The position numbers and the translations under genes were made by a program. The notes below the pieces were generated by a model. The model was not told where the DNA came from, searched no databases, and saw nothing but the letters and a program-made list of their open reading frames with translations. 64,000 bases of DNA, from contig JBMOQY010000038.1 of NCBI GenBank assembly GCA_049322455.1, positions 768 through 64,767 of the forward strand, written 5' to 3'. Shown here piece after piece: positions 39,191-62,347 of the stretch. Numbering within the stretch: position 1 is the stretch's first letter; each line of letters opens with the position of its first letter. The stretch is from Verrucomicrobiota bacterium (GTDB lineage: Bacteria; Verrucomicrobiota; Verrucomicrobiia; Opitutales; Opitutaceae).

Positions 39191-39715
39191 CTATTTCCGG
39201 GCGGCGTGCGCCTTGGCGACCTCGACGTATTTCTCGGCCCAGGCGCGGAGCCCCAACAGCTCGGGCTCCCTGAGCGGACGCACCACCTTGGCGGGCGCGC
39301 CGAGGACCATCGAGCCGGGTGGAGCGACAAAACGCTGCGTGACGAGCGCGTTGGCACCCACGATGCAATGGTCGCCGATGACGGCGCCGTCGAGGATGGT
39401 GGCCCCCATGCCGATCAGGCACTCGTCCCCGATGGTGCAGGCGTGGATGATGGCACTGTGGCCGATGGTCGTGTAACGGCCGATCTTCACGCCGTAGTCG
39501 TCGGCCAGGTGCACCATGCTCAGATCCTGGATGTTCGTGCCCTCGCCAATTTCGATGGAGTTGATGTCGCCCCGCAGCACGCAGCCATACCACACGCTGC
39601 TCAGCAGTCCCAGCTTCACGTCGCCAAGCACGGTGGCGTTGGGGGCCACGAACGCCGCCGGCCGGATATCCGGGGTTTTCGTCAGGTGTTGGGCGAGCCT
39701 TTGCTTGATGTCCAT
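39191..39715 (-). CDS. Gamma-carbonic-anhydrase-family hexapeptide-repeat protein (YrdA/PaaY-like)
   Basis: Left-handed beta-helix repeats. VWYGCVLRGD...IGEGTNIQD..VH, IGHSAIIHAC.IGD..LIGMGA. Confidence 0.88.
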   Translation of the reverse strand: MDIKQRLAQHLTKTPDIRPAAFVAPNATVLGDVKLGLLSSVWYGCVLRGDINSIEIGEGTNIQDLSMVHLADDYGVKIGRYTTIGHSAIIHACTIGDECLIGMGATILDGAVIGDHCIVGANALVTQRFVAPPGSMVLGAPAKVVRPLREPELLGLRAWAEKYVEVAKAHAARK

Positions 39716-39724
39716 GCCCGGAGG

Positions 39725-41359: not shown

Positions 41360-42151
41360 TCAGCGCTGCGCCCGTTCCTCCAGCCGGTCCAGCAGTCGCA
41401 ACAGGCCGTCGAGGATCGTGAGCGGGTGCGGCGGGCAACCCGGGATGAAGAGGTCCACCGGCACGACCGCAGCCGCGCCGGCAAGGTGCTCAGGATTGCC
41501 CACGAAGGGGCCGCCCGCAATCGCGCAGGCGCCGACCGCGACGACGATCTTCGGCTCCGGCACCGCCTCCCAGGTCTTGCGCAGCGCCAGCTCCATGTTG
41601 CGGCTGACGGGACCGGTGATGAGCAGGCCGTCGGCATGGCGCGGCGACGCCACGAACTGGATGCCGAAGCGTCCGAGGTCCCAGCCGATGGTGCCGAGCA
41701 CGTTGGTGTCGGCTTCACAGGCGTTGCAGCCGCCGGCGCTGACCTGCCGCAGGCGGAGCGACCGGCCGAACATCCGCCGCAATTTTTCATCCAGCGCCGC
41801 GGCAAGGCGGACCTCCCCTCCTGCCCCGCCCAACATAAGGTCCTCGCGCCGGCGCACCGCCATGCGGTGGTCGCCTGTCTGGGTGATAGCCTTCGTCGGA
41901 CAGGCCGCCACGCATTCCGCGCAGAAGATGCAACGCCCGAGATCGAGCGCCACCGGTGCCCCACCAGAACGCGTTATCGCCTGCGTCGGGCACACCGGCA
42001 CGCAGGCGTTGCAACCGTCGGCGCACTTCGCCGCCTCCACCCGCAACGCGCCCCCGTGCCGGTCGGGCAGCGCCGGCGCCGGACCCTGCGGATAGGCCAT
42101 CGTTTCGCAGCCGCGCTTGAGCCGGTTTGTGAGGATGTCAGGGACGAGCAT
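41360..42151 (-). CDS. Fused HycF-like 2x[4Fe-4S] ferredoxin domain + HycG/NuoB-like small subunit
   Basis: N-terminal part: CADGCNACVPVCP and CIFCAECVAACP. C-terminal part: NuoB/HycG cluster ligands GGCNACE, VGACAIAGG, IPGCPP. Confidence 0.85.
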   Translation of the reverse strand: MLVPDILTNRLKRGCETMAYPQGPAPALPDRHGGALRVEAAKCADGCNACVPVCPTQAITRSGGAPVALDLGRCIFCAECVAACPTKAITQTGDHRMAVRRREDLMLGGAGGEVRLAAALDEKLRRMFGRSLRLRQVSAGGCNACEADTNVLGTIGWDLGRFGIQFVASPRHADGLLITGPVSRNMELALRKTWEAVPEPKIVVAVGACAIAGGPFVGNPEHLAGAAAVVPVDLFIPGCPPHPLTILDGLLRLLDRLEERAQR

Positions 42152-42167: not shown

Positions 42168-43685
42168 TCAGAGATCGAAACCGCAGTAGGAAAGGTTGAA
42201 GCTCTTGTTGCAGAGCGGAAAATCCGAGATCGCCTGCCCGCGCAGGGCCAGCGCCAGGCCGGTCCAGTTGTGGAACGACGGATCGGTGATCTTGTAGCGG
42301 CGGAAGCGTCCTGCGCCGTCCGTCAGCGCCACATGGCAGACCTCGCCGCGCCAGCCCTCGGTCAGCGCGACCGCCAGGGTGTCGGGCGCCGGCGCAGGCA
42401 ACTCTTCAAAAATCCCGCCTTCGGGCGCGGCCGCGAGCTGTTCGCGCAGGAACTGGCCGGAGCGCTGCACCTCGAGCCAGCGCACCCGCGCCCGGGCGAG
42501 CACATCTCCGCCCGACCACACCGCCACGGGCGCCTGGGCGAACCGGTGCCATCCCGCCGGGTGATCGTAGCGCACGTCGCGCACAAGTCCGCTGGCCCGC
42601 GCCGCCGGGCCGACGAGGCCGATCTCCGCCGCCTGTTGCGGAAAGACCGGGCCGGTGTTCTCGAAGCGCGCACGCACGCTGGCGGACTCCCACAGCCAGC
42701 CCGCCGCCTGTTCGACCTCGGCCAGGGCGGGACCGAGCCGCTCCAGCATCTGCGCGGCGCGCGCCGGCTCCAGGTCGTGACGGCAGCCGCCGGGCCGCAC
42801 CAGGCCGCGTCCGAAGCGGTTTCCGCACAACAGCGCCGTGAGGTTGAGAAAATCGCCGCGCGTCTTGCCGCAGGCCGCCGCGGTGGGCAGAAACGCCACG
42901 TCGTTGGCCAGCGCGCCCAGGTCGCCCGTGTGATTGGCCAGCCTCTCCAGCTCCAGGGCGATGGCGCGCAGCCACTGCGCCCGCAAGGGCGCCTCAGTGC
43001 CGGCCAGAGCCTCCAGCAACGAGGCATAGGCCGTGGCGTGTGCAATGGTCGTGTCGCCCGCGACCGTCTCGATCTGGCTGAGCGTCGAACGGTGCGGCCC
43101 GCCGCACAGCGCCGTCTCCACGCCGCGATGCTGGTAGCCGAGGGCGATTTCCAGGTGCAGCACCTCCTCGCCGGCGCATTGAAACCGGAAATGCCCGGGT
43201 TCGATGATGCCGGCGTGCACCGGTCCGACCGCGACCTCGTGCACCTCGCGCCCGTCCACGCGGAAAAACTCGCCGTTGGCCGGCGCCGCGAGGTCGCCGG
43301 TCCGGCGCACGGGTTTGAGCCAGGGGTGGCCCTGCGGCACCAGCCCGTGCTGCTCCCACACTTCGCGCTCGAACAGGTGGGCCTGGACCTGCCGCACGGT
43401 CAGCGAGGGATAGCAGTTGGCCACCGCAAAGGGCATGCTGCTCTCCGGTTCGACCACTGCGCTGCGTCCGACCGCAAGCGTGTTGTCGGCATCGTAAGCC
43501 AGCACGGCGACCAGGCGGACGCCCGCCCGCCCCTCCGGCACGCCAAACCAGGCGCACAGGCGCGCGCCGCCCTCCAGCTCGGTCGCGGTGGCCTCGACGA
43601 AGTCCGCCACCGGCCACACCGGCACCTTCGCCCAAGGCACCGCGGTGGCGTTGGCCAGCAGCAGGAAGGAGGCCGGCGTGCTCAT
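42168..43685 (-). CDS. HycE/HyfG-like (NuoC+NuoD fusion) large subunit lacking Ni-Fe cysteine ligands (Ehr-type)
   Basis: 505 aa from internal ATG MSTPASF. NuoC-like YPSLTVRQVQAHLFEREVWEQHG. Group-4 signature GPVHAGIIEPGHFRF. Cysteine motifs are replaced (see findings). Confidence 0.85.
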   Translation of the reverse strand: MSTPASFLLLANATAVPWAKVPVWPVADFVEATATELEGGARLCAWFGVPEGRAGVRLVAVLAYDADNTLAVGRSAVVEPESSMPFAVANCYPSLTVRQVQAHLFEREVWEQHGLVPQGHPWLKPVRRTGDLAAPANGEFFRVDGREVHEVAVGPVHAGIIEPGHFRFQCAGEEVLHLEIALGYQHRGVETALCGGPHRSTLSQIETVAGDTTIAHATAYASLLEALAGTEAPLRAQWLRAIALELERLANHTGDLGALANDVAFLPTAAACGKTRGDFLNLTALLCGNRFGRGLVRPGGCRHDLEPARAAQMLERLGPALAEVEQAAGWLWESASVRARFENTGPVFPQQAAEIGLVGPAARASGLVRDVRYDHPAGWHRFAQAPVAVWSGGDVLARARVRWLEVQRSGQFLREQLAAAPEGGIFEELPAPAPDTLAVALTEGWRGEVCHVALTDGAGRFRRYKITDPSFHNWTGLALALRGQAISDFPLCNKSFNLSYCGFDL

Positions 43686-45124
43686 GGGTGGGGATAAAGT
43701 TGCTGGACGGCCGCCGTCCAGGCCTCGCGCAGCACCTCCGGGGTGCTCACGCCCAGCCACAGCGAAAAGCCGAGCAGAACGAGCGGCGGCATGATCAGGC
43801 CAACCGTCTCCGGAAACCGTCGCGCCTCCACCCGGGCTGCCGCCCGCGGGCGTCCGTCCACGACGCCGAACACCACGCGGGTCAGGCCGAAGAAGGCGAA
43901 GACGAGGCAGCCGAGAAACACCGCGGCCGCGCCCCCGCGGCCGGTCGCAAAGGCCGCGCGCACAATGCCGAGCTCGCTGAAGAAGGGGCCGAACGGCGGC
44001 AGCGCCGTGACGACGAACATGCCGGTCACGAAGATCCCCGCCGACCAGGGCATGAGCGCGGACATGCCCCGAACCTCGTCGAGCGTGCGCGCCCCCGCGG
44101 CGCGGCGGATGTTGCCGGCGCTCAGGAAAAGCGCGCCCTTGGTCAGGCTGTTGCCCCAGACGTGGAACAGGGCCGCCCACGCGCCGGCGCCGCCCAACGC
44201 CGCCCCGAGCGCCAGGATGCCCATGTGCTCGACGCTGGAATACGCCAGCATCCGCTTGAAATCGCGCGTGCCGAGAAGGAACAGCGCCGCCACCAGCACC
44301 GAGAACAAACCGATCGCCAGCAGCGTGCGGTCGGCCGCGGCCGCCTCCCCGGCGGCATCGAGCACGGCACGCACGCGCAGGATGGCGGTGAACGCCACGG
44401 TGGTGACCCCGCCCGCCAGCACCGCGCCCACGATCCCCGGGGCCTCGCCGTAGGCGTCGGGCTTCCACGTGTGCATCGGCGCCAGGCCCATTTTGGTGCC
44501 GTAACCCGCCAGCAGCAGCACCCAGGCCGCCAGCACCCAGGGACGGGAGAGGTCCGGACCCTGCGCCATCAGCGCCACGAACGTCAGGTCCCCGGCGCCG
44601 CCACCCTGCAGCGACGCGTAACCGAGGCAGAACGAGCCCAGCAGCGACAGCGCGATGCCGGTGCCGCCGACGAGCAGGTATTTCCAGGTCGCCTCGTAGG
44701 CGCGCGCCGTGGCGTTGAAGTGCAGCAGCGGCACGGCCGCGAGCGTGACCGCCTCGGTGGCGATCCACAGCAGGCCGAGATGCCGCGCCTGGTGCCCGGC
44801 GCTCAACAGTCCCGGCACCACCAGCATCAGGGCCACGAACACGCGGTTGGGCCGCTCGGTCCGCAGCGTCAGGTAGGGCACCGCATAGGCGGCGCAGAGC
44901 AGGAACAGGAGCGACACCGCCGGCAGCAACGCCCGGGCCAGCGGATCAAAGGCCAGCCACGCGCCCGGATCCAGGGCCGGAGGAGCGAACAGCATCCACA
45001 GGCAAAGACCGGTGTGCAGCAGCCCCACGACCGGCAGCAACCAGGGCCGTGTCCGGTTGGACGGCCAGACGGCGGCGAGCAGCGCGCCCGCCAGGGGCAG
45101 GATGACGAGAAGCAGCTCTTTCAT
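43682..45124 (-). CDS. HyfF/NuoN-like antiporter-type membrane subunit
   Basis: 480 aa from internal ATG MKELLLVIL. GYGTKMGLAPMHTWKPDAYGEAP signature of NuoL/M/N-family proteins. Confidence 0.85.
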   Translation of the reverse strand: MKELLLVILPLAGALLAAVWPSNRTRPWLLPVVGLLHTGLCLWMLFAPPALDPGAWLAFDPLARALLPAVSLLFLLCAAYAVPYLTLRTERPNRVFVALMLVVPGLLSAGHQARHLGLLWIATEAVTLAAVPLLHFNATARAYEATWKYLLVGGTGIALSLLGSFCLGYASLQGGGAGDLTFVALMAQGPDLSRPWVLAAWVLLLAGYGTKMGLAPMHTWKPDAYGEAPGIVGAVLAGGVTTVAFTAILRVRAVLDAAGEAAAADRTLLAIGLFSVLVAALFLLGTRDFKRMLAYSSVEHMGILALGAALGGAGAWAALFHVWGNSLTKGALFLSAGNIRRAAGARTLDEVRGMSALMPWSAGIFVTGMFVVTALPPFGPFFSELGIVRAAFATGRGGAAAVFLGCLVFAFFGLTRVVFGVVDGRPRAAARVEARRFPETVGLIMPPLVLLGFSLWLGVSTPEVLREAWTAAVQQLYPHP

Positions 45125-45774
45125 TCGCGCAGCACGGTCAGTTTGCGGGTGTCCAGCGAGTCGAAGGCACGCTGGATGCGATCCACGATGATGCCGATGA
45201 CGAACACGCCCACGGTCAGGTCCAGCAGGATGCCGGCCTCGACCAGCAGCGGCGTGGATCCGATGAGCAGCAGGCCGAAGAGGTAGATGCCGTTTTCCAG
45301 GATCAGGTAACCGCAGACCTGCGAAATGGCCTTGGCGCGCCCGATCAGCAGGATGAACCCGGTCAGCACCGACGCGCCCGCGCCCGGCACCAGCAGCGAG
45401 CCGGTGTGCGCCGGCAGCAGCGGCAGGTTGCGCGCCAGGGCCACGGCGGCGATCGTCCCGCCCGCACCGAGCAGCAGCGACGGCACGAAGCCGATGAACG
45501 GCTCGACCTCGCGGTCGATGTGCGCGGTGCGCATCGCGCGACGCAGCAGAAGCGGGATGAGGAACCCCTTGCCTGCGACCGTGACCAGCGCCACCAGCCC
45601 GGCCAGCCATTCGAAATGCGATTCCAGCACGAGTGGCATGATGCCGAGCACCATGCCCTGCACCGACACGGTCTGGATCAGCGCGGGCAGCCGGCTGCTG
45701 CCCAGCGCGAGCAGGTTCAGGCCCATCGCGAGGCCGATCAGCAGGTTCAGCGTGCCGTAGTCGGCGTGATTCAT
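45121..45774 (-). CDS. HyfE-like small membrane subunit
   Basis: 217 aa polytopic (E. coli HyfE is of similar size, from memory). Position between the HycD-like and HyfF-like genes matches hyf order. Confidence 0.7.
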   Translation of the reverse strand: MNHADYGTLNLLIGLAMGLNLLALGSSRLPALIQTVSVQGMVLGIMPLVLESHFEWLAGLVALVTVAGKGFLIPLLLRRAMRTAHIDREVEPFIGFVPSLLLGAGGTIAAVALARNLPLLPAHTGSLLVPGAGASVLTGFILLIGRAKAISQVCGYLILENGIYLFGLLLIGSTPLLVEAGILLDLTVGVFVIGIIVDRIQRAFDSLDTRKLTVLRE

Positions 45775-46682
45775 GCCCCGCCTCCTTTCCACGCCACGAG
45801 CAGCGCGAACAGGCAGAGCAGGAACGCCGTCGTCAGCAGCAGCGGCACCTTCCGGAACGCCAGGCGGGCCATGAGCGACTCGACCAACCCCACCCCCACC
45901 GCGACCGCCAGCACCCCGCCCGCCAGCGCCCCCGCGCCCGCATACGGACCGAGGTCGCCCAGCGGCAGCACCGCCTCGGTGAGCAGCACGGCGAACAGCA
46001 GCAGCTTCATCGCCGCCCCGTGCAGGACGACCGCCAGCGGCGGCCCGCTGTGGTCGAGGACCATGACCTCGTGGATCATGGTCAGCTCGAGGTGGGTGTT
46101 CGGATCGTCGAAGGGCACGCGGCAGTTCTCCGCCAGCAGCACGGTGAAGAGCCCGGCCGCCAGCAGCACGCCGCCCGCGCCCACCGCCGGCGCGAGCATG
46201 GAGGACAGCGCGAGGCCGCCGCTCTGGACGGCCAGGGCCAGCACCGCGGCGATCAGCGCCGCCTCGGCCAGCACGGCATAGCTCACCTCGCGGGCCGCGC
46301 CCATGCCCTCGAAGGCCGAGCCGGTCTCCATCGCCGCCCAGGTCGTGGCGAATCGCGCGAGCGCGAGCAGATAAACCAGCAGGATCACATCGCCGCGAAA
46401 ACTGAACATTGCCCCGGCGGGCCCCAGCGGCAGCAGCATTGCCGCGCCCGTCACTGCCACCCAGGCCACCGCCGGCCCGGCCACAAAGCCCGGCGAAACC
46501 AGCGTGCTCAGCACCACGCCCTTCTGCCACAGCCGCGCCAGGTCGTAGTAGAGCTGCAGCACCGGCGGACCCCGCCGCCCCGCCACCCAGGCCTTCACGC
46601 GGTTGATCACACCGGGCAGCAGCGGCGCCAGGCACAGCCACAAGGCCAGCCGGCACAGAAAATCGAGGAACGTCAGGATCAT
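45771..46682 (-). CDS. HycD/HyfC/NuoH-like membrane subunit
   Basis: 303 aa. AENCRVPFDDPNTHLELTMIHEVMVLDHSG matches the NuoH/HycD E..R.PFD...E.EL conserved loop. Confidence 0.85.
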   Translation of the reverse strand: MILTFLDFLCRLALWLCLAPLLPGVINRVKAWVAGRRGPPVLQLYYDLARLWQKGVVLSTLVSPGFVAGPAVAWVAVTGAAMLLPLGPAGAMFSFRGDVILLVYLLALARFATTWAAMETGSAFEGMGAAREVSYAVLAEAALIAAVLALAVQSGGLALSSMLAPAVGAGGVLLAAGLFTVLLAENCRVPFDDPNTHLELTMIHEVMVLDHSGPPLAVVLHGAAMKLLLFAVLLTEAVLPLGDLGPYAGAGALAGGVLAVAVGVGLVESLMARLAFRKVPLLLTTAFLLCLFALLVAWKGGGA

Positions 46683-48634
46683 GACCGCCCTCCCATCAAC
46701 ACCAGTGCGCCGATCGCCGCAAGCCCGGCCACGATGTAGAGCACGTAGGCTTGCAGCCGGCCGTGCTGCAAGCGGCGCGCCGCCAGCGAAGCCTGCAGCA
46801 CGACGGCGCCCACGGGCCCGAGCACGCGCTCCAGCACCGTCTCGGGCACGCGCTCCACCCGCAGCGCGCTCTCCGGCAGCGGACCGCGCGGCCGGCGCAG
46901 CTTCAACTCAGGCCGCAAGATCCAGCCGAACCAGCCCGCGGCGATGCCGCCGAACGAACCTGCGGTGTATTGCATGCTCGCCGCCGGCGCCGCGTAACCG
47001 CAATCCCAGGTCGGGCCGCGACGCGCCCCGGCCCCGCGCACCCGGCGCCACAGCCAGCTCGCCGCGGCCACCGCCAGCAGGGCGAGCACGGGTTGGGCCA
47101 CGCTCAGTGCGCGCAACGATGCCGGCATGGACCGGCCCGCCCACGCGGGGTTCCATGCTTCCGCCGCCCGGGCCAACGCCGGCCAGAACAGCACCGGCGC
47201 AAGCCCCAGCACGATGCAGAGACCCGCCAGCACCAGCATCGGCGCGCGCATCCACGGACCGCATTCGTGCGCATGCTTCGCCGCCTTCGTTCGCGCCGCG
47301 CCCAGGAAAACCACCGTCCCGGCCTTGACGAATCCGGCCAGCGCCAGCGCCCCGGCCGAGACCAGCAACAGCACCGCGGGCAGTGCCGCCCACGCGGCCG
47401 GCCCGCGGCCGGCCACGGCTTCGAACAGCCCGAGATACACCAGCCACTCGCTGACAAAACCGTTCAAGGGCGGCAACCCGGCCACGGCGAGCGCGCCCAG
47501 CGTGAACAGCCCGGCCGTCCACGGCATCGGGCGCCACAATCCGCCGAGGCGGCTCATCTCCCGCGTGCCCGTGGCATGCAGCACCGAGCCGGCGCCCAGG
47601 AACAGCAGCGATTTGAACACCCCGTGGTTCCACACGTGCAGCAGCGCGCCAGTCAGCACCAACGGCCCCCAACCCGTCGCCGGACCGCCGGTGCGGGCGG
47701 CGAGCAACGCGCCGCCGAAGCCGGTGAGAATGATGCCGACGTTCTCCACCGTGCAGTAGGCCAGCAGCCGCTTGAGATCGTTCTGCGCCACGGCGAAGGC
47801 GATGCCCAGCAGCGCACCGGTCGCGCCCAGCCCCAGCACGACCCAGCCCGCCGCCTCCGGCACGGGCAGCCAGCCGCTGAAACGCAGCAGACCGTAGAGA
47901 CCCATTTTGACCGACACGCCCGACATGATCGCCGACACGTGGCTCGGGGCGTTGGCATGCGCCGAGGGCAGCCAGACATGCAGGGGAAACAGGCCGGCCT
48001 TCACGCCAAAGCCCGCCAGCACCACCCAGAACAACGGCTCCAGCTCGGTCCGCTCCCGCATCGGACCGAGATCCCAGCCGCCGGTGCGGGCCGCCAGCGC
48101 GGCGAAGAAGGCGAACAGGCAGGCCGTCCCCGCGTGCGACGCCGCGAGGTAGAGCCAGCCGGCCGCCCGCGCCTCGCGCTTGGCGTGGTCCAGCGTGACC
48201 AGAAAATACGCGCACACGGCGAACAGTTCCCATGCGATGAGAAAGTGCAGGCCGTTGGCGGACACCAGCACGCTGCCGAGGCTCAGTGCAAGGGCGCTCC
48301 ACCAGATCCGGTTGCGCGGCGCGGCATCCGGGTGGTGCCGGTCCGGCCAGTATTCGTGTGCATAGGCCGCACCCGCGGCGACCACGACGCCAAGCAGGGC
48401 GAGAAACCACGCGCTCAATCCGTCCAGCCGCAGATGCAGCGGCTCACCGTCAACCGCGAAGGCGCTCCGCCATTCCCAATCGGGCGCGCCACCCAGCACC
48501 TGCGCCGCCGCCGCCAGCGCCGCGACCGCGCTCCCCACGGCGCATCCCAGCCAGACCCGCGGCCAGCGCGGGCCGGCCATGACGCCCGCCGCCTGGCCCA
48601 GGGCTGCCACCAGCAGCAGCACGCCCGGGCTCAT
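46679..48634 (-). CDS. HyfB/HycC/NuoL-like antiporter-type membrane subunit (intact paralog)
   Basis: 651 aa from internal ATG MSPGVLL. GLFPLHVWLPSAHANAPSHVSAIMSGV signature and the C-terminal TWDCGYAAP...MQYTAGSF extension. Confidence 0.88.
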   Translation of the reverse strand: MSPGVLLLVAALGQAAGVMAGPRWPRVWLGCAVGSAVAALAAAAQVLGGAPDWEWRSAFAVDGEPLHLRLDGLSAWFLALLGVVVAAGAAYAHEYWPDRHHPDAAPRNRIWWSALALSLGSVLVSANGLHFLIAWELFAVCAYFLVTLDHAKREARAAGWLYLAASHAGTACLFAFFAALAARTGGWDLGPMRERTELEPLFWVVLAGFGVKAGLFPLHVWLPSAHANAPSHVSAIMSGVSVKMGLYGLLRFSGWLPVPEAAGWVVLGLGATGALLGIAFAVAQNDLKRLLAYCTVENVGIILTGFGGALLAARTGGPATGWGPLVLTGALLHVWNHGVFKSLLFLGAGSVLHATGTREMSRLGGLWRPMPWTAGLFTLGALAVAGLPPLNGFVSEWLVYLGLFEAVAGRGPAAWAALPAVLLLVSAGALALAGFVKAGTVVFLGAARTKAAKHAHECGPWMRAPMLVLAGLCIVLGLAPVLFWPALARAAEAWNPAWAGRSMPASLRALSVAQPVLALLAVAAASWLWRRVRGAGARRGPTWDCGYAAPAASMQYTAGSFGGIAAGWFGWILRPELKLRRPRGPLPESALRVERVPETVLERVLGPVGAVVLQASLAARRLQHGRLQAYVLYIVAGLAAIGALVLMGGRS

Positions 48635-49326
48635 GACCTGCCGCCTCCCGCCGCGGCCTCGTCGCAAGCCGCGGCCGCCAGGTAGATGTCGGCGTCCCCT
48701 GCCCCGGCGGAGATGGTTGCGCGCCAGTCTTCGCGCTTGAGCGCGCGGCTGAGACGCCCGAGCAGGTCGAGGTGCGCGCGGGGCGACGGCGCGATGAAGA
48801 ACAGCAGGCGCGTGACCGGCACACCGTCGAGCGGTTCGGCCTCGGGCAGCGCTTCGCGCAGCAGCAACAGCGCCAGTGTGCCGGAATCCCGCCCCAGCGC
48901 GATGCGCGTGCTCGGATGCGGCAGGGCAAAGCCATGCCCCACGGGCGCGAGCGTCACCCCGCCCTTGGCCGTGAGCCGCCGCGCCAGCATCTGCCGCACG
49001 GCGGGGGATGCGCCCGGCATCGCCGCGGCGATCTTGCCGAACACCGCGGGGATGTCCGCGGCGGGCACGTCGCGCCAGATGCCACCGGTGCGCAGCAGTT
49101 GCTCGAGGCGGATGTCCGTCGCGAAGGGCGCCCGCGTTTCGGGCGCCAGAAAGCCCGCCTGAGCGGCGAGCCCGCGCGCCGCCGCCCATTCCGCCACCTG
49201 CGCCCGGTCGAACAACGGCCGGCCGCGATCGAGGGTGTGCGGCAGGGCCTCGGTCCGCATCCAATCCTCGACGACTCTCTCCGAGACGCCGAAGGACTCC
49301 GCAATCTGCACCAGGTTCAGATACAT
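48631..49326 (-). CDS. Excisionase/MerR-type HTH domain fused to a PTS EIIA-2 (PtsN/EIIA-Ntr-like) domain
   Basis: N-terminal LNLVQIAESFGVSERVVEDWMRTEALP...FDRAQVAEW (HTH_17-like). C-terminal EIIA-2-like domain with phosphorylatable-His context LAPVGHGFALPHP. ATGA overlap with the downstream HyfB-like gene. Confidence 0.75.
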   Translation of the reverse strand: MYLNLVQIAESFGVSERVVEDWMRTEALPHTLDRGRPLFDRAQVAEWAAARGLAAQAGFLAPETRAPFATDIRLEQLLRTGGIWRDVPAADIPAVFGKIAAAMPGASPAVRQMLARRLTAKGGVTLAPVGHGFALPHPSTRIALGRDSGTLALLLLREALPEAEPLDGVPVTRLLFFIAPSPRAHLDLLGRLSRALKREDWRATISAGAGDADIYLAAAACDEAAAGGGRS

Positions 49327-49399: not shown

Positions 49400-51342
49400 T
49401 CATGAGGCATCTCCGCCCAGGACCAGCAAGGCGAGGGCGGCGATGCCCAGCAGCAGATACAGCAGGTAGGATTGCAGCCGGCCGTGCTGCAGGTGGCGCG
49501 CCATCGCCGCCGCGCGCAGGACCGCCCCGGCCGCCGGTTCGACCACGTGCTCGAGCACGGTCTCCGGCGTGTGCTCCGTGAAGCTCGCCTGCGCGGGCAA
49601 CACCGCCGCCGGCCGCTGTTCATGGCGCACGGGCCGCAAAATCCAGGCGAACCACCCGGTGATGATGCTGGCAAAGGAGGCCGCGGTATATTGCATCCGC
49701 GGCGTGGGCGCCGCGTAGCCGCAGTCCCAGGTCACGGCACGGACCGGGCCGCCGCGGCGCACGCGGGACCACAGCCCCCACGCAGCCCCGCCCGCGCCGA
49801 GTGCCAGCGCGACGTGCAGCAGGCTGAGCGCGAACAGGGCGCGGCCGTGCCCGCCCAGGCCGGGCTCCACACGCCCACGGCGCGCGCCACGGCGGGCCAG
49901 AACAGCACCGGGGCGAGACCGATCGCCACGCAGAACGCCGCGAGCAGCACCATGGCTCCGCGCATGGCGGGCCCGCTCTCGTGCGCGTGCGCCGCCTCCG
50001 CGGAACGCGGGGCGCCCAGGAAGACCACGCCGCACACTTTCGCGAAGCAGGCCAGGGCCAAGGCCCCCGTCAGGGCCAGCAGGATCGCGGCCGCAATCGC
50101 CGCCCACGCCGCCGCGCCGGACGCAAGCACGGCGTCGAAAAGACCGAGATACACCAGCCATTCGCTGACGAAACCGTTCAGCGGCGGAAGGCCGGCAATC
50201 GCCGACGCGCCGAGCGCGAACAGGGCGGCCGTCCACGGCATCAGGCGCCACAGGCCGCCGAGCCGGCTCATCTCGCGCGTGCCGGTGGCATGGAGCACCG
50301 AACCGGCGCCGAGGAACAGCAGCGCCTTGAACAGGCCGTGATTCCACACGTGCAGGAGTCCGCCGGCCAGCGCCAGCGCGCCCCACTCCGGCCGGCCTTG
50401 CTCCGCCGCCACGATGGCGAACCCGAGCCCGATGAGAATGATGCCGATGTTCTCGACGCTGTGGTAGGCCAGCAGCCGCTTCAGGTCGTGCTGCCCCAGC
50501 GCGAACGCCACGCCGAGCACGGCGCTCGCCACGCCCAGCGCCGCAATCATCCAGCCCGCGCCGCCGGGCAGCGGCATCCAGCCGCTGAAACGCACGAGCC
50601 CGTAGATGCCGAGCTTGATGGTCACGCCCGAAAGGATTGCGGAGACGTGGCTCGGGGCGTTGGCATGGGCGGAGGGCAGCCAGATGTGCAGGGGGAACAG
50701 GCCGGCCTTCAAACCGAAACCGAACAGCGCCAGCCAGAACAGGGGCGCGAGTTCAGGACGGCCGGGTAACGGGCCGAGTTCCCAGCCCCCGGTCTCCACC
50801 GCCAGCACGGTGAAGAAGGCAAACAGCGCGAGCACCGCCACATGCGACGCTCCGAGATAGAGCCAGCCCGCGGCCCGGATCTCGGCGCGCGTCCGGTCGA
50901 GTGTCACCAGAAAATAGGCGGCCAGCGTAAAAACCTCCCACGCGATGAGAAAGTGCAGTCCGTTGACCGTCACCAGCACGAGCCCGATGCTGGCGAGCAT
51001 CAGGCTCCACCACAGGCGCCCCACCCCGGCCGACCTCGGGTGCGCCGCATCGGTCCGGTATTCGCAGGCATACACGGTGGCGGCCCCGCCGACCACGCAC
51101 GTGAGGGCGAGAAACAACGCGCTGATCGCATCGAAGCGCAGGTGCACGGGTTCGCCGCCCACCCGGAAACCGGCAGACCAGTCCCACTCGCCCCCTCCCG
51201 TCAGCGTGCCGGCCGCCGCCACCAAAGCGGCCACGCAACCGAGCAGGGTTCCCGCCAGCCAGACCCGCGGCGCAGTCCGCCAGGAGAGGGCGCCCGAAAG
51301 CGTCCCGACCAAGGCGACCAGCAGCAGCGGACCCGGATTCAT
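49400..51342 (-). pseudogene. Second HyfB/NuoL-like antiporter-type subunit interrupted by one frameshift (pseudogene, sequencing error or recoding)
   Basis: Two track ORFs in different frames (49732..51342 and 49400..50386) together reproduce the full paralog architecture. The frame switches between ...VGVWSPAWAG and GRALFALSLLHVALAL... near 49846-49857. Total length is 1943 nt, one short of a multiple of 3. Confidence 0.75.
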
Positions 51343-53198
51343 GAGGCTCTCGTCGCGGGCGGTTCGCGCGCGGACCGGTCGAGGCGGTTGAGGATCTTCT
51401 CGGCCCGCGCGAGCGACTCGGCGAGCTCCTTGCGCGCGGCCTCCACCGCCTGCCGCTCGGTGTGGAGGGTTTCATGCGGCTCGGGCGGCTCGTCCACCGG
51501 CGGCAACCCGAGGATCTCGCGCGCCCGCGCCAGCGCGGCCGTGATGTGCGGGCAAACGTTCTCGCGGCCGAGCCGGTCGATGAAGCCGGCGTTTTCCATG
51601 ACGGCCAGCGGCTGGGTGTGGGGCGCGCTCAGGATGAGGTGCTTGCCCTTGGCGCGGAGCTTCAGGTGCAGGTCCTCCAGCGCGCGCAGGCCGGTGGCGT
51701 CCATCGCGAGCACCTTGCGCACGCGCAGGATGAGGACCTCGGGCTCCTGCTTCACCCGCTTCAGCTCGTCGTCGAGCTTGTCCACGACGCCGAAAAAGAA
51801 CGCGCCGAACACCCGGAACACGAGCACGCCCTCCGGTATTTCCTTGCCGACAAGCGAATGGTGCGAGCCCTCGGTCTCGGTGGACTCGTCCACCGCCGTG
51901 ATCTGGGAGGTCTCGGAGATGCGTTTGACCAGCAGCAACGCGGCGAGCACCACGCCGACCTCGACGGCCAGCGTGAGGTTCGTCAGCACGGTCAGCGCGA
52001 AGGTGGCAACAAACACCGAGGAGTCGCTGAGCGGCCAGTTGCGCAGCCGCGCGAACTGCTTCCACGAGACCATGCGGAACGCCGCCACGACCAGGATGGC
52101 GCTCAGCGCCGAAAGCGGAATGCAGCCGACAAGCGGGGCCGCGGCGAGCAGCAGCACGAGCAGCAGTCCGGCATGGACGAGGCCGGCGACCGGCGTGCGG
52201 GCGCCGGCCCGGACGTTCATCACGGAGCGCGCCACGGCGCCGGTGACGGGGATGCAGCCGAAGAGGGGGCCGGCCATGTTCGCCACGCCCTGGCCGATCA
52301 GTTCCTGGTTCGAGTCGTGCCGCTCGTCCAGCAGGCCGTCGGTCACCACGGCGCACAGCAGCGCCTGCATGGCGACGAGCAGCGCGATCGTGAACGCCGG
52401 CTGGAGCAGGTTGCTGGCCGTGTCCCAGTCGGCGCGCGGCCATTGCAGCGCCGGCAGGCTCCGGGAGAATTCGCCGAACTCCGACGCGATGGTCGGGATC
52501 TGCCAGCGGTCATGCAAACCGAAGGCGGCCACGGCCACCGTGGCGGCGACCAGGCCGACCATCGGTCCCGGCAGCAGGCGCGAGAACCTCGCCGGCCACA
52601 GCGCGATCAGCACCACCACGGCCACCCCCAGTCCGGCGGTGGGCCAGTGGATGGCGTCGAGATGCGAGGCGAACACCTTGAGTTTGCCCGGGAAATCCAC
52701 CGGCATCCGTTCCACGGCCAGTCCGAGGAAGTTCTTGATCTGCGAGCCGAGGATGAGGATCGCGATGCCCTTGGTGAAGGCCCGGGAGACCGGATAAGGA
52801 ATGTAGCGGATGATCGAGCCCATCCGGGCAAATCCCATCACGCAGAGCATCGCCCCGGCCATGATGGTGCAAAGCATCAGGCCGTTGGTCCCGTAACCCT
52901 GCAGCACGCTGTAGGTGATGATGACGAAGGCTCCGGTCGGACCGCCGATCTGCACCCGCGAGCCGCCGAGCGCCGCGATGATGCCGCCGCCGATGATGGC
53001 GGTGAACAGCCCCTGCTCCGGCCGGACACCCGACGCGATTGCGAAGGCGATGGACAGCGGGAACGCCAAGATCATCACGTTCAGCCCGGCCAGGAAATCG
53101 CGCCGGAAGTCCGCCCGCGTATAGCCCTGCAGCGCATCGAGCAGGCACGGGCGGAACTGGAATCCTGGCAAGGCCAGGGAGACTTCCGGCTGATTCAT
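51339..53198 (-). CDS. SulP-family inorganic anion transporter with C-terminal STAS domain
   Basis: 619 aa. DFLAGLNVMILAFPLSIAFAIASG, GGSRVQIGGPTGAF, STAS region VLVFRVFGAFFFG...LILRVRKVLAMDATGLRALEDL, then a ~60-aa charged tail. Stop overlaps the next gene's start (ATGA). Confidence 0.92.
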   Translation of the reverse strand: MNQPEVSLALPGFQFRPCLLDALQGYTRADFRRDFLAGLNVMILAFPLSIAFAIASGVRPEQGLFTAIIGGGIIAALGGSRVQIGGPTGAFVIITYSVLQGYGTNGLMLCTIMAGAMLCVMGFARMGSIIRYIPYPVSRAFTKGIAILILGSQIKNFLGLAVERMPVDFPGKLKVFASHLDAIHWPTAGLGVAVVVLIALWPARFSRLLPGPMVGLVAATVAVAAFGLHDRWQIPTIASEFGEFSRSLPALQWPRADWDTASNLLQPAFTIALLVAMQALLCAVVTDGLLDERHDSNQELIGQGVANMAGPLFGCIPVTGAVARSVMNVRAGARTPVAGLVHAGLLLVLLLAAAPLVGCIPLSALSAILVVAAFRMVSWKQFARLRNWPLSDSSVFVATFALTVLTNLTLAVEVGVVLAALLLVKRISETSQITAVDESTETEGSHHSLVGKEIPEGVLVFRVFGAFFFGVVDKLDDELKRVKQEPEVLILRVRKVLAMDATGLRALEDLHLKLRAKGKHLILSAPHTQPLAVMENAGFIDRLGRENVCPHITAALARAREILGLPPVDEPPEPHETLHTERQAVEAARKELAESLARAEKILNRLDRSAREPPATRAS

Positions 53199-57326: not shown

Positions 57327-58256
57327 TCACGCCACGGCCACGGACTTGCCCGCGAGCTCGGCGGTCACGCTCTGACAGAGACCGACGAAGGTCTCCTCGC
57401 CGAGCGAGAGCCGGCGGCCGCGCAGGTGGCCCACGCCCCACTTGCGGCGCAGCCTGCGGCGCCCGAGCGGGAGCGACACGAGCGCGCCCGACACGAGTTC
57501 GTTGCGCGCCACCCACGGCGCGAGCACGCCGACGCCGAGACCGATCTTCACGAGTTCCTTGATCGCCTCCATGCTGCCGAGTTCGAGGATGTTGGTGAGC
57601 GGCAGCTCCTCGGCGCGGAAATACTCCTGCACCAGCCGGAACGTGTAGCTCGTGTGGTTGTAAACGATGAGCGTCTCGTTCTCGAACCCGCCGGGCTGCA
57701 CCCTGCCCTCGCGCGCCCAGGCGTGGCCGGGCGCGACGAGGAAACGCATCTCGTCCTCGAAGAGCGGCACGAACGCCAGCTCCTTCATGCCCTCAGGCTC
57801 CAGCATGATGGCCAGGTCGATGCGGTTGTTCAGCAACTGCTCCACCTGCCGCGCGTGGTCGCCCGGATCGATCGAGATGACGCATTTCGGGAAGCTCTGC
57901 TTGAATTCACGCAGCACGGTCGGCAGGATGTACTGGCAGGCGGTGGTGCTCGCGCCGAGCCGCAGCCGTCCGTGACCCCAGCGGGTGAGTTCGTCGAGAC
58001 CGCGGCGCGCGGTCTTCATTTCCGCCAGAATCTTGTCCACGTGTCGCAGAAATTGCTCGCCAGACTGCGTGAGCGCGACGCGCCGGCCGGCGCGCTCGAA
58101 GAGCCGGCAGCCGGCCTGCTCCTCCAGCGCCTTGATGGCATGGCTGATGGCGCCTTGGGTGAGATAAAGTTCCTGCGCGGCACGCGTAAAGCTGCCCAGC
58201 CTCGCGAGGGTGGCAAAGGCCAGAAGCTGTCGTGTGTCGAATACGTTGTGCTTCAT
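57327..58256 (-). CDS. LysR-family transcriptional regulator
   Basis: HTH LLAFATLARLGSFTRAAQELYLTQGAISHAIKALE plus a LysR substrate domain. Divergent from the ABC-transporter operon. Start at internal ATG MKHNVF. Confidence 0.9.
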   Translation of the reverse strand: MKHNVFDTRQLLAFATLARLGSFTRAAQELYLTQGAISHAIKALEEQAGCRLFERAGRRVALTQSGEQFLRHVDKILAEMKTARRGLDELTRWGHGRLRLGASTTACQYILPTVLREFKQSFPKCVISIDPGDHARQVEQLLNNRIDLAIMLEPEGMKELAFVPLFEDEMRFLVAPGHAWAREGRVQPGGFENETLIVYNHTSYTFRLVQEYFRAEELPLTNILELGSMEAIKELVKIGLGVGVLAPWVARNELVSGALVSLPLGRRRLRRKWGVGHLRGRRLSLGEETFVGLCQSVTAELAGKSVAVA

Positions 58257-58374
58257 GTCGTGGGCTTTAGCGGCAGGCATGAGCCGGGCTCATGTCGGCC
58301 ATGAATTCTTTGCTGAGCAGTAATCGGGCCAATTCCGCCGGCTGGCATGTCACGCGCTGAGAGGCAGGCATTCC

Positions 58375-59463
58375 ATGGCCACGCATCTCCCATCTTCCGG
58401 TCGCTTGCTCCGCCTGGGCTTTTTGGCCCTGACGGACGCCGCGCCGCTCGTCGCCGCGCACGAACTGGGCTGCTTCGCGCGCCGCGGCCTGAGCGTCGAG
58501 CTCTGCCGCGAGGTCGGCTGGGCCACCATCCGCGACAAGATCGCCTACGGGGAACTCGACGCCGCACATGCGCCCGCACCGATGCTGTGGTCCACCATGC
58601 TCGGACTGGGATGCGCACCCGCCGACGTTTGCACCGGCTTCATCTTCAACCTGCACGGCAATGCCCTCACCCTCTCCGTGCGCTTGTGGGAAGCGGGCGT
58701 GCGCGACGCCGCCACGCTCCGTGAGGACGCGCTGCGGCGCCGCGGCGAGACCAAGCTCATGTTCGGCATCGTGTTTCCGCACTCGATGCACCACGTGCTG
58801 CTCCGCCAGTGGCTGCGCGACGCCCGCCTCGACCCCGAGCGCGACGTGCGCATCGCGGTCGTGCCTCCCGCCCAGATGTTCCGCAATCTCGTCGCCGGCA
58901 CGCTCGACGGTTACTGCGCGGGCGAGCCCTGGAACACCCTTGCCGTGCAGCAAAACCAGGGCTGGTGCCCCGCGTGGAGCGCCGCCCTGGCCCCGGGTCA
59001 TGTCGAAAAGGTCCTGATGGTGCGCAACGCCTTCGCCGAACGCCGCGCCGCCGAGCACGCCGCGCTCATCGCCGCGCTCACCGAGGCCGCAGCCTGGTGC
59101 GACCAGCCGGCCAACCGCGCCGCCCTCGCCCGGATGCTCGCCGCCCCGGCCTACCTCAATCTCGACGCCGCGACCATCGAGCCGACCCTGCTCGGCCGTT
59201 TCGCCACCCGTCCCGGCGTCGTCGAGTCCGTGCCGGATTTCCATGTCTTCAGCCAGGGCCACGCCAACGTCCCCACCGCCGATCGCGCCGCCACGCTCCA
59301 GAACGAGCTGGTCGCCTCCGGCCTCCTGCCGCGCTCGCTGCCCGGCCCCAGCCTGCCCCGCCGACTTTTTCGCGAGGACCTCCATCGCGAAGCCACCGCC
59401 AACCTCGACCCTCATGCACACCAGCAACTCAAGCTCCATAGCGGGACAGTCGTCACCGCTTGA
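58375..59463 (+). CDS. NrtA/CmpA/SsuA-family binding-protein homolog without signal peptide (cytoplasmic, NasS-like sensor candidate)
   Basis: LRLGFLALTDAAPLVAAHELGCFARRGL and DGYCAGEPWN parallel the downstream periplasmic paralog (LNFGIIALTDCSPIVIAHEKGFFRKYGI, DGFCVGEPWN). There is no signal or Tat leader. Confidence 0.75.
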   Translation: MATHLPSSGRLLRLGFLALTDAAPLVAAHELGCFARRGLSVELCREVGWATIRDKIAYGELDAAHAPAPMLWSTMLGLGCAPADVCTGFIFNLHGNALTLSVRLWEAGVRDAATLREDALRRRGETKLMFGIVFPHSMHHVLLRQWLRDARLDPERDVRIAVVPPAQMFRNLVAGTLDGYCAGEPWNTLAVQQNQGWCPAWSAALAPGHVEKVLMVRNAFAERRAAEHAALIAALTEAAAWCDQPANRAALARMLAAPAYLNLDAATIEPTLLGRFATRPGVVESVPDFHVFSQGHANVPTADRAATLQNELVASGLLPRSLPGPSLPRRLFREDLHREATANLDPHAHQQLKLHSGTVVTA

Positions 59464-60712
59464 CCGCCGCAAATTCATCGCCGACAGCGCCAAACTGACC
59501 GGCGCGGCCGCCCTCTGGGCCGCCCTCGGCTCCAAGAGCTGGGCCGCCACGGCCGGCTCCGCCTCCGACTCGCCGGAGACACCCGACCTCAACTTCGGCA
59601 TCATTGCGCTGACCGACTGCTCGCCCATCGTCATCGCGCACGAGAAGGGCTTCTTCAGGAAATACGGCATCAATTCCAAGATCACGAAGGGCGCCAACTG
59701 GGCCGCCATCCGCGACAACCTCTCCACCGGTTCCATCCAGGCCACGCACATGCTCATCGGCATGCCGCTCGCTTCCACCATGGGCCTCGCCGGTTCGCCC
59801 AAGAAGCCGATGGTCATTCCGTGGCTGCTCAACCGCAACGGCCAGGCCGTCACCCTCAAGGCCGAGTGGAAAGGCAAGGTCGGCGCCGACCCCAAGGCCC
59901 TCAAGCCCTTCGTGGACCAGGCCAACAAGCTCGGCGAGCCGCTCACCTTCGCGATGACCTTCCCTCCCGGCACCCACGCCATGTGGATGCGCTACTATCT
60001 CGCCGCCGGCGGCATCAATCCCGACAAGGACATCTCCCTCATCACCATCCCGCCGCCGCAGATGGTCGCCAACATGAAGATCGGCAAGATGGACGGCTTC
60101 TGTGTCGGCGAGCCTTGGAACGCCCGCGCCATCGCCGACAACATCGGTTTCACCTCCGTCACCACGCAGGACATGTGGAAGGACCACCCCGAGAAGGTCT
60201 GCGCCTTCACCGAGGAATTCGCCGAAAAGAACCCCAAGACCGTCAAGGCCGTCCTCAAGGCCCTCCACGAGGCCAGCGTGTGGCTCGACGACATGGCCAA
60301 TCGCTCCGAACAGTGCGACATCGTCTCCAAACCCACCTACATCAACTGCCAGAAAGAAGTCATCCTCGGCCGCCTCCTGGGCAGGCTCGACTACGGCGAC
60401 GGCCGCACGACGCAGGACGAGTTCTGCATGCACTTCAGCAAGCGCAACTGCAACTACCCGCAGCCGAAGTATGCCAAGTGGTTCATGTCCCAATACCGCC
60501 GCTGGGGCATGGTCACCGGCACGCCCGACTACGAGGGCGTCGCCCAGCGCGTCATGCGCACCGACCTCTACGAGGAGGCCATGAAGGAGATCGGCTACGC
60601 CCACGGCGGCCTCGACAACTCGCCCGAGACGCTCTTCGACGGCATCGCCTTCGACCCGAGCAACCCCGAGGCCTACGCCACCGGCGCCGCCGTCAAGAAC
60701 CTCAAGGGCTGA
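59414..60712 (+). CDS. Periplasmic nitrate/bicarbonate-type ABC transporter substrate-binding protein (NrtA/CmpA family), Tat signal
   Basis: Twin-arginine leader SPLDRRKFIADSAKLTGAAALWAA. NrtA-family core. Start at the only in-frame ATG (overlaps the upstream gene by 50 nt; start uncertain). Confidence 0.85.
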   Translation: MHTSNSSSIAGQSSPLDRRKFIADSAKLTGAAALWAALGSKSWAATAGSASDSPETPDLNFGIIALTDCSPIVIAHEKGFFRKYGINSKITKGANWAAIRDNLSTGSIQATHMLIGMPLASTMGLAGSPKKPMVIPWLLNRNGQAVTLKAEWKGKVGADPKALKPFVDQANKLGEPLTFAMTFPPGTHAMWMRYYLAAGGINPDKDISLITIPPPQMVANMKIGKMDGFCVGEPWNARAIADNIGFTSVTTQDMWKDHPEKVCAFTEEFAEKNPKTVKAVLKALHEASVWLDDMANRSEQCDIVSKPTYINCQKEVILGRLLGRLDYGDGRTTQDEFCMHFSKRNCNYPQPKYAKWFMSQYRRWGMVTGTPDYEGVAQRVMRTDLYEEAMKEIGYAHGGLDNSPETLFDGIAFDPSNPEAYATGAAVKNLKG

Positions 60713-60726
60713 ACCCGCTTCGTGTC

Positions 60727-60990
60727 ATGAGCAGCACCCCCACGGGCCCGCGCCCCGACGCCTACTGGCAGGCCTGCCGTCACCCGGCGGTCTGGCAGCG
60801 CGCCGCGCGGCTCGGGCTCGTGGTCGGGCTCATCCAGGTCTCCCTCAATCAGGGCGACCACTGGCTCACGGGCCACGTCACGACCGGCGTCATCGTCAAA
60901 TCCATCCTCTCCCCGCTCCTCTCCTTCGGCATCGCCTTCGCCTCCGCCGCGGCGACGCAGGCGGAAAACCTCCCCCGCTCCGCACCATGA
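60727..60990 (+). CDS. Small two-TM protein, NrtS-like (putative nitrate/nitrite transporter component)
   Basis: 87 aa. LGLVVGLIQVSLNQGDHWLTG...ILSPLLSFGIAFASA resembles my recollection of the NrtS family (VG..L..INQGD). ATGA overlap with the permease gene. Confidence 0.55.
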   Translation: MSSTPTGPRPDAYWQACRHPAVWQRAARLGLVVGLIQVSLNQGDHWLTGHVTTGVIVKSILSPLLSFGIAFASAAATQAENLPRSAP

Positions 60991-61772: not shown

Positions 61773-61872
61773 TGCGCATCAAGGCGCGGACAGCCGAAAA
61801 ACCTTAAACTGAATACGGATCAATTTATGATTTATAATCTGCGATTTATGATTTCGGGAAAGAGCTCGAAAT

Positions 61873-61890
61873 GCCTCGCGCAAAGGACGC
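61873..61890. repeat. Left arm of 18-bp perfect inverted repeat
   Basis: GCCTCGCGCAAAGGACGC; its reverse complement occurs at 62348-62365. Confidence 0.8.
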
Positions 61891-61904
61891 AGAGGTCGCC
61901 AAGG

Positions 61905-62291
61905 TCAGCTTTCCAGGCCGTTGACGAGTCGCTTGATTCCGTCCTTCAGGTGAATTTCGCCGAAGTTGATCAGCAAACCAAGGCGGAGCCCACTGAGCCG
62001 AAGCTGCGTGATAACCTGCTTGGCATGGATCGGTGCCAGCGCCTCAACCGACTTCAGTTCAATGATCTCCTTTTCTTCCACCAGCAGATCGGCGCGAAAG
62101 CCTTCTTCAAAACTCAATCCTTCATAGCAGATGGGAATCGGCACCTGCCGGCGTGTCGGGAGCCCATGCTTGGTCAATTCGTAGGCGAGCACCGCTTCGT
62201 AAACCGATTCGAGCAAACCCGGCCCCAGGTTCGTGTGAACCTTGAAGGCTGTGTCCAGAATAATTTTGGTGATTTCGTTCTCTGTTTTCAT
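61905..62291 (-). CDS. GxxExxY protein (PD-(D/E)XK-like nuclease superfamily, PDDEXK_3)
   Basis: 128 aa from internal [42 protein letters not shown]. Contains the eponymous G-LL-E-SV-Y motif and D/E...ELK ([13 protein letters not shown]) core. Confidence 0.88.
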
Positions 62292-62347
62292 GCCCCGGCA
62301 TTTTCGTCCGACGGCATGGGCCGCTCCAACCAACCTTTGCGCCCTTC

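Follow-up and report, generated by a model that had tools for sequence, protein, structure and literature searches.

On the reverse strand of a 64,000-nucleotide stretch from an Opitutaceae bacterium of the Verrucomicrobiota (contig JBMOQY010000038.1; the whole stretch analysed is hereafter called the window) lies an operon resembling those of energy-converting hydrogenases. Its large-subunit gene, here termed ehrL (42168..43685, 505 aa plus stop), encodes a fused NuoC-like and NuoD/HycE-like protein without Ni-Fe ligands. Complexes of this kind have been known since 2005-2013, and to our knowledge none of them has an assigned reaction. They are named Ehr, for “energy-converting hydrogenase related”, the type being EhrA-1/A-2/B/C/D/L/S of Geobacter sulfurreducens, encoded by GSU0739-45 (PMC7894505). 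Published accounts describe them as lacking the Ni-Fe ligands and their function as not established (PMC6349859, PMC10284858, PMC6728331), and the Rv0082-87 locus of Mycobacterium tuberculosis is also an Ehr complex (PMC6728331). A search of the literature for functional or structural characterisation of Ehr yielded genomic and proteomic mentions only.

The genes of the operon were identified by Pfam and NCBIfam, and all lie on the minus strand. In the order of transcription they are a gene for a 619-aa SulP transporter with a STAS domain (51339..53198); ehrA-1 (49400..51342), a HyfB/NuoL-like paralogue; a gene for a 231-aa protein counted from ATG (48631..49326), which joins an HTH_17 helix-turn-helix domain to a PtsN-like enzyme IIA domain with a GxGFALPH His motif and is hereafter called HTH-EIIA; ehrA-2 (46679..48634, 651 aa), the second HyfB/NuoL-like, antiporter-like paralogue; ehrB (45771..46682, 303 aa), HyfC/HycD/NuoH-like; ehrC (45121..45774, 217 aa), for a HyfE-like membrane subunit; ehrD (43682..45124, 480 aa), HyfF/NuoN-like and antiporter-like; ehrL; and ehrS (41360..42151, 263 aa), for a fused NuoI/HycF-like and NuoB/HycG-like small subunit. 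The junctions are 4-nt ATGA overlaps, the ehrD stop with the ehrL start among them, except at ehrA-1/HTH-EIIA and ehrL/ehrS. The SulP stop overlaps the ehrA-1 start in the same way, thus SulP is the first gene of the operon here. We also observed that ehrA-1 carries a -1 frameshift near 49834-49839, after ...AWAGTAAP, from where the C-terminal ~140 residues run on in another frame. Its orthologue in a relative (L005) is an intact 657-aa gene, and the frameshift is either a sequencing or assembly error or a real recent lesion; six genes downstream of it are intact. Scanning the operon with Rfam and for promoters and terminators was uninformative.

An earlier note on this DNA, made from the sequence alone, had described a 505-aa open reading frame (ORF) without any CxxC, and the translation of 42168-43685 (-) agrees: all ten cysteines of EhrL (residues 44, 91, 170, 194, 272, 287, 301, 450, 492 and 501) were checked and no two lie within five residues of each other. 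Pfam finds Complex1_49kDa (7.6e-30) and a sub-threshold Complex1_30kDa (0.0015) in EhrL with no match to PF00374 NiFeSe_Hases, and no NCBIfam model reaches its cut-off. The best solved relative by sequence is E. coli HycE (7z0s_E, 4.7e-43), followed by MbhL, Thermus thermophilus Nqo4, NdhH and MbsL. An AlphaFold2 model of EhrL, built from 71 family sequences, has a predicted local distance difference test score (pLDDT) of 94.5 and a predicted template-modelling score (pTM) of 0.94. According to Foldseek no solved structure is closer to this model than HycE (7z0s_E), on which it superposes with a template-modelling score (TM) of 0.89 and 27% identity, and E. coli NuoCD comes second with a TM of 0.85, the NuoC-like N-domain being covered in both. 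Pfam, sequence search and Foldseek together uphold the homology of this large subunit to group-4 [NiFe]-hydrogenases and NuoD. The NuoC-like N-domain that the note had recognised is thus retained, and so is the HycE/HyfG-type block, which is GPVHAGIIEPGHFRF at residues G154-F168 (43182..43226, -), the beta1-beta2 loop block common to group-4 hydrogenases. Within VVEPESSMPFAVAN in the NuoC-like domain, at residues 77-90 (43416-43457, -), we observed an insertion of about ten residues, which in the MAFFT alignment is confined to the closest relatives (P0004) and absent from P0057 and P0108; its residues 83-88, with pLDDT <50, are the sole low-confidence stretch of the model.

The Ni-Fe site itself was compared by aligning EhrL with E. 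coli HycE, HyfG and NuoCD using MAFFT. RVCGICGFAH of HycE falls over ETVAGDTTIAH of EhrL, which sets A209 and T212 in place of C241 and C244, and DPCYSCTDR falls over NLSYCGFDL and a stop, which sets S499 and G502 in place of C531 and C534. Zero of the four cysteines is left, just as the note had proposed with its HycE numbering, which we verified. EhrL therefore reads E-T-V-A-G-D-T-T-I-A-H where group-4 enzymes carry the L1 motif R-x-C-G-x-C-x-x-x-H, and N-L-S-Y-C-G-F-D-L, then stop, where they carry the L2 motif D-P-C-x-x-C-x-x-H/R. The former L1 motif spans I205-H216 (IETVAGDTTIAH; 43038..43073, -) and the former L2 motif F496-L505 (FNLSYCGFDL; 42171..42200, -, with the stop at 42168-42170), and the positions first given for both were right to within 3 nt. 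EhrL ends with L505, which pairs with R537 at the end of mature HycE; E162 matches the Glu of the block DEPGHFR in HycE, and C501 is off register with the L2 ligands. Since the NiFe(CN)2CO cofactor requires four thiolates (PMC12134894) and all four cysteines are replaced, no such cofactor can be held; a Ni-Fe site cannot exist in EhrL and the protein is not a hydrogenase. The quinone ligands of complex I are missing as well, the quinone His H38 of Nqo4 in the beta1-beta2 loop corresponding to I161 of EhrL and the Tyr Y87 to G210 (phmmer to 2fug_4; MAFFT with E. coli NuoCD). The result is a pocket with neither hydrogenase nor complex I ligands, so that the comparison “as in complex I”, by which the note had illustrated a conformational coupling element, should not be taken literally. 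Its broader suggestion, that the site may bind another substrate or act as a coupling element, would fit the strong conservation of the remodelled residues.

This conservation was counted over 90 divergent Cys-less representatives of 50%-identity clusters from many phyla, in which the replacement motifs [ASC]-G-D-[ST] and N-K-S-F-N-L-S-Y-x-G-x-D-L-stop are conserved. Position 209 is Ala in 44, Ser in 30 and Cys in 10 of them. The neighbouring G210 and D211 scarcely vary within the family (kept in 86 and 84), Ser or Thr stands at position 212 in 77, H216 is kept in 66 and E162 of the beta1-beta2 loop in 82. At the other motif, N493 and K494 are kept in 76 each, S495 in 85, S499 in 81, G502 in 88, D504 in 84 and L505 in 79. 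These counts show the former Ni-Fe site to be a conserved polar motif, not debris; the pocket is conserved like a catalytic site, yet without Ni-Fe or quinone ligands. If ehrL were a decaying pseudo-hydrogenase, a relic without function, the loss of the catalytic ligands and the frameshift of ehrA-1 in the window would be readily explained. That said, the ratio of nonsynonymous to synonymous substitution rates (dN/dS) of ehrL is 0.11-0.25 against 11 relatives, the replacement residues hardly vary across phyla, ehrA-1 is intact in close relatives, the genes downstream of it and the overlaps at all but two junctions are preserved, and all Ehr subunits were detected as proteins in G. sulfurreducens (PMC7894505). 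We rejected the pseudogene reading on dN/dS and conservation and give it next to no probability; the complex is clearly still functional and not decaying.

The family around EhrL is large. A word-indexed protein search returned at least 8000 relatives, the best of which, among the matches listed, are named Lacunisphaera, Opitutaceae or Verrucomicrobia, and when the 50%-identity representatives were searched exhaustively, 5731 proteins passed E<=1e-3, of which 835 also passed E<=1e-30. Nearly all full-length representatives that were aligned have both replacement motifs and the same end residue. Three of them (P0238, P0252 and P0255) have all four cysteines and are likewise without a C-terminal extension. 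The loss of the maturation peptide, which the earlier note had listed beside that of the cysteines, has to be read in this light: EhrL does end at the mature C-terminus of HycE, but because these CxxC proteins also end at the same position, the missing extension is not diagnostic and is no evidence in itself. In a neighbour-joining tree, calculated without bootstrap, EhrL lies inside a monophyletic Cys-less clade whose sister group is formed by the three CxxC proteins, with HycE and HyfG outside. The placement in the Ehr clade, apart from true hydrogenases, is thus what the tree returns.

Two further observations concern this clade. At L014:2583-9983 and L049:13464-20560 a second, divergent Ehr cluster lies directly beside the first, in L014 even between ehrD and ehrL of the first. 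The EhrL proteins of these second clusters are 36-38% identical, also Cys-less, and end in ...SYSGTDR or ...SYSGHDL, indicating that at least two Ehr subfamilies coexist. The other concerns annotation. Cys-less relatives (P0001-P0120, P0271-P0390) are recorded as “hydrogenase”, “hydrogenase large subunit”, “Ni,Fe-hydrogenase III large subunit” or “NADH-quinone oxidoreductase subunit C”, and a query with the EhrL of Geomonas likewise returned relatives under generic names only, “hydrogenase” and “NuoC”. Such systematic mis-annotation of Cys-less proteins can inflate predictions of H2 metabolism from metagenomes.

Could the site still hold a metal by other ligands? Candidates such as D211, H216, C492 and C501 would make EhrL a hydrogenase or another metalloenzyme of non-canonical type. 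Cysteine occurs at position 492 in 63/90 and at 501 in 44/90 representatives, in addition to the 10 with Cys at 209 and the 66 with H216, and in Geobacter grown on formate Ehr is up, upon which the authors speculated on H2 formation (PMC7894505). None of the candidate ligands is universal in the family, however; the four thiolates demanded by the cofactor are missing, and Pfam NiFeSe_Hases matches the CxxC sisters and not EhrL. We consider this explanation scarcely credible.

To place the operon as a whole, one genome per species was scanned, which gave at least 597 related loci, and the best 80 were compared by tblastn with the window proteins. These come from Verrucomicrobiota, Planctomycetota, Geobacterales, Acidobacteriota, Gemmatimonadota, Spirochaetota, Lentisphaerota, Desulfovibrionaceae, Cloacimonadota, Omnitrophota, Actinomycetota and others, and the order EhrA (one or two copies)-B-C-D-L-S is invariant in them across at least 10 phyla. 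EhrL of Geobacterales is 53-57% identical to that of the window. The locus of Geomonas sp. RF6 reads HTH_17+PTS_EIIA_2, EhrA, EhrA, EhrB, EhrC, EhrD, EhrL, EhrS, a layout that equals the published 7-gene cluster GSU0739-45 of G. sulfurreducens (PMC7894505) plus the regulator. Clustering of the ORFs from the 80 loci revealed no recurrent partner of the formate dehydrogenase, NuoEF, HycB or ferredoxin kind; the recurrent genes besides those of the operon are a sensor-like gene (11 loci), a response regulator (7) and SulP (6-7). The 64-kb window contains no hyp or hycI gene, NuoEFG genes are absent in and near the Ehr cluster, and the rest of the window, with housekeeping genes as its remainder, has no formate dehydrogenase or ferredoxin gene. 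Taken together, the Cys-less large subunit, the preserved cluster ligands of the small subunit and the make-up and order of the operon agree with how Ehr is defined, which identifies the window gene as a member. This supports the conclusion, already drawn in the earlier note, that the protein is no hydrogenase, and it means that EhrL belongs to a described family and is not a new loss event. That ehrL encodes an Ehr large subunit acting in a ferredoxin-fed, ion-translocating module appears highly probable to us.

The partner subunits show what has been kept. EhrS retains all four NuoB/HycG cluster cysteines that had been ascribed to it (C142, C145, C209 and C239), its motifs GGCNAC, GACA and PGCPP aligning with the ligands of HycG/HyfI. 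It also has an N-terminal NuoI/HycF-like 2x[4Fe-4S] domain with Cys 43, 47, 50, 54, 74, 77, 80 and 84, which had gone unmentioned. From Verrucomicrobia to Geobacterales and Acidobacteriota none of the 12 Fe-S cysteines has been lost, and the proximal cluster has the CxxC of hydrogenases (GGCNAC) instead of the tandem CC of NuoB. In the membrane arm, EhrA-1 and EhrA-2 keep the Glu of transmembrane helix (TM helix) 5, the Lys of TM helices 7 and 8, the His/Lys of TM helix 11 and the Glu of TM helix 12 found in NuoL/M/N and HyfB. EhrD keeps Glu, Lys, Lys and Glu on TM helices 5, 7, 11 and 12, with Thr on TM helix 8 and Asn for one His of TM helix 11, much like HyfF. EhrB keeps R36, Q43, D47, E140, PFD 190-192, E199 and R273, which are common to NuoH, HycD and HyfC. 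The ligands of the Fe-S chain, the coupling subunit and the antiporter relays are thus intact and under selection.

The regulator accompanies the cluster over a wide range of hosts. HTH-EIIA matches PtsN structures (4gqx, 2.4e-5) behind an N-terminal, excisionase/MerR-like HTH_17 domain, with no NCBIfam model at cut-off. Homologues are present in 43 of the 80 loci (L009-L088), or 36 of the 49 with enough upstream sequence, and additionally at L089:1764-2453, ranging from Verrucomicrobia to Geobacterales, Gemmatimonadota, Actinomycetota and Omnitrophota. Most of them keep the phosphorylatable-His motif G-x-G-[IF]-A-[IL]-P-H. This suggests that the Ehr cluster is under control of the nitrogen phosphotransferase system (nitrogen-PTS) via HTH-EIIA. 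We found no mention of the link between HTH-EIIA and Ehr in the searchable literature. The SulP protein has DauA, then BicA, as its best NCBIfam matches, both below cut-off, and adjoins Ehr in 7 of the 80 loci from three phyla (L010, L013, L018, L019, L039, L065 and L080), which suggests that it stands next to Ehr more often than by chance adjacency.

From these genes one may also construct a complex without electron turnover, that is, an Mrp-like cation/proton antiporter or channel in which the Fe-S arm would be structural or serve as a redox or PTS gate. In its favour are the conserved PtsN-like regulator (proteins of the PtsN type govern K+ transport in other bacteria), the SulP transporter co-transcribed here, the intact antiporter-like subunits, the lack of any conserved donor or acceptor module and a polar pocket without metal-type ligands. 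The retention of 12 cluster cysteines from Verrucomicrobia to Geobacterales and Acidobacteriota is, however, hard to explain without electron transfer, and genuine Mrp antiporters have no peripheral arm. We hold such an antiporter to be rather improbable and prefer a redox-driven, ion-translocating module.

We propose that the ancestor of Ehr was a minimal six-subunit, Ech/Hyf-like group-4 [NiFe]-hydrogenase (A-B-C-D-L-S), in which one ancestral event would have exchanged the four Ni-Fe cysteines for small or polar residues and a conserved Asp, giving [ASC]-G-D-[ST]...S-Y-x-G-x-D-L-COOH. Ehr has kept the three [4Fe-4S] cluster ligand sets, the beta1-beta2 loop Glu and two or three antiporter-like subunits with Glu/Lys relays. 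The CxxC sister, like Ech, is without a donor module, hence a soluble low-potential donor, probably reduced ferredoxin, would most likely feed the NuoI-like domain. Electrons would then travel from cluster to cluster as far as the proximal one and be handed to an acceptor in the remodelled polar pocket, where L, S and B meet. Changes of protonation, charge or conformation around E162 and D211 may be passed on by EhrB and EhrC to EhrD and EhrA, where H+ or Na+ would be translocated, and expression is probably controlled by the cluster-encoded HTH + PtsN-like protein.

Menaquinone would be the leading candidate for the acceptor. A narrower version of our explanation accordingly makes Ehr a ferredoxin:menaquinone oxidoreductase, a complex I-like “missing link” with other ligands for the head group. 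Most host phyla make menaquinone, the fold and the C-terminal end of EhrL are those of NuoD (with the TM of 0.85 to E. coli NuoCD), the NuoH-like subunit has its conserved loop residues, and the Fe-S chain is intact though the Ni-Fe site is gone. This idea is weakened by the missing quinone His and Tyr, by a proximal motif of the hydrogenase-type CxxC and not the CC of NuoB, and by reports of Ehr in metagenome-assembled genomes without recognisable quinone biosynthesis (PMC6349859); we regard it as possible, though doubtful. Bolder, and in our judgement improbable, is the proposal that the pocket (E162, G210-D211-S/T212, N493-K494-S495, S499, D504 and the C-terminal carboxylate) would be a new non-NiFe active or ion-binding site, and Ehr a distinct class of ferredoxin-driven ion pump, tied in its expression or activity to the nitrogen-PTS by way of HTH-EIIA, with an ion gradient that in some lineages, the present one among them, would power the co-transcribed SulP transporter directly.

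Several points weigh against the general picture of a ferredoxin-fed Ehr pump. The mechanism is inferred, and the proteomics of G. sulfurreducens tie Ehr abundance to growth on formate and not to ferredoxin (PMC7894505). The missing quinone ligands at I161 and G210 and the genomes without quinone biosynthesis count here as well. As for the identity of the complex, the orthology tree is a rough one without bootstrap support, the orthology to Geobacter Ehr rests on Geobacterales other than G. sulfurreducens, and the absence of hyp genes holds within the 64-kb window only.

Other genes of the window were considered in passing. A gene for a gamma-carbonic-anhydrase-like hexapeptide-repeat protein (39191-39724, -; NCBIfam CarbAnhydGPos 165 bits, below the cut-off of 250) lies 1.6 kb downstream of ehrS, past an oppositely oriented NupC-type nucleoside transporter gene, and was detected beside Ehr in none of the 80 loci nor in the relatives L005 and L007. 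At 57327-63999 a LysR regulator gene is divergent from an ABC transporter gene set that encodes two NMT1_2 binding proteins (NrtA/CmpA-like, of nitrate/bicarbonate type), a permease and two ATPases. A role of the complex in inorganic-carbon uptake, considered in view of SulP and these genes in the window, was not adopted, because the carbonic-anhydrase-like and transporter genes are not conserved beside the Ehr clusters of relatives and a CupA- or DabA-like subunit is lacking. Separately, at 14890-22603 (+) lies a fatty-acid-synthase-like cluster (ketoacyl synthase (KAS), FabA-like, enoyl reductase, KAS III), interleaved with two amine-oxidase-type flavoproteins and a xylose-isomerase-like TIM-barrel protein, which possibly represents a specialised lipid or polyene pathway.

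Ehr complexes stand between energy-converting hydrogenases and complex I, and they are widespread, with at least 597 loci in one species-representative scan and thousands of protein clusters. The window leaves the overall picture of Ehr unchanged. What it shows is that the former Ni-Fe site has been rebuilt into a specific conserved motif, not merely degraded, and that the cluster is accompanied across phyla by a PtsN-like HTH protein; the rebuilt motif and this protein are concrete targets for mutagenesis and regulatory work.

Among known systems, the Geobacter-type Ehr is the nearest, having the same Cys-less large subunit and the cluster ligands of the small subunit kept, and the Geobacterales loci L036, L040, L047 and L089 are identical to the window cluster in gene content and order. 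The window Ehr differs in that HTH-EIIA lies between the two ehrA paralogues and not upstream of both as in most phyla, and from the Geobacter type in the SulP gene translationally coupled in front and the frameshifted ehrA-1; the 10-residue insertion in the NuoC-like domain of EhrL is also missing in some relatives. The CxxC sister clade (P0238, P0252 and P0255), predicted to be group-4 [NiFe]-hydrogenases, is about 38-42% identical to EhrL. It has an identical beta1-beta2 loop, VGPVHAGIIEPGHFRF, and shares the context DFPL-x-NKSF-x-L...D-[LR]-stop without C-terminal extension, whereas all four cysteines are kept and Pfam NiFeSe_Hases is matched. In the sister locus L092 the operon is again A-B-C-D-L-S, the small subunit is fused and a donor module is lacking. 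L092, the only sister locus reaching upstream of the operon, has no HTH-EIIA gene there; in L090 ferredoxin and NuoB are separate genes.

HycE and HyfG, at 27-30% identity to EhrL, share the fused NuoC-like N-domain, and the membrane subunits of Ehr are Hyf-like. In contrast to formate hydrogenlyase, EhrL has no Ni-Fe ligands and no 32-residue extension, genes for HycB/HyfA, FdhF, HycH and HycI are missing, and the counterparts of HycF and HycG are fused. The Mbs/Mbx complex of Pyrococcus furiosus (6u8y), which we take to be a group-4 hydrogenase relative whose hydrogenase chemistry was lost, has a modular membrane arm and a NuoB/D-like core as in Ehr, but is much more distant from EhrL (E ~1e-18 versus 5e-43 for HycE) and different in its operon and antiporter module. 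Complex I (NuoCD, NuoB, NuoI, NuoH and NuoL/M/N), finally, has the same fold, the same C-terminal end and no Ni-Fe site, and Ehr shares with it the conserved antiporter and NuoH residues, while differing in the absence of the quinone Tyr/His and of NuoEFG and in a proximal CxxC instead of CC.

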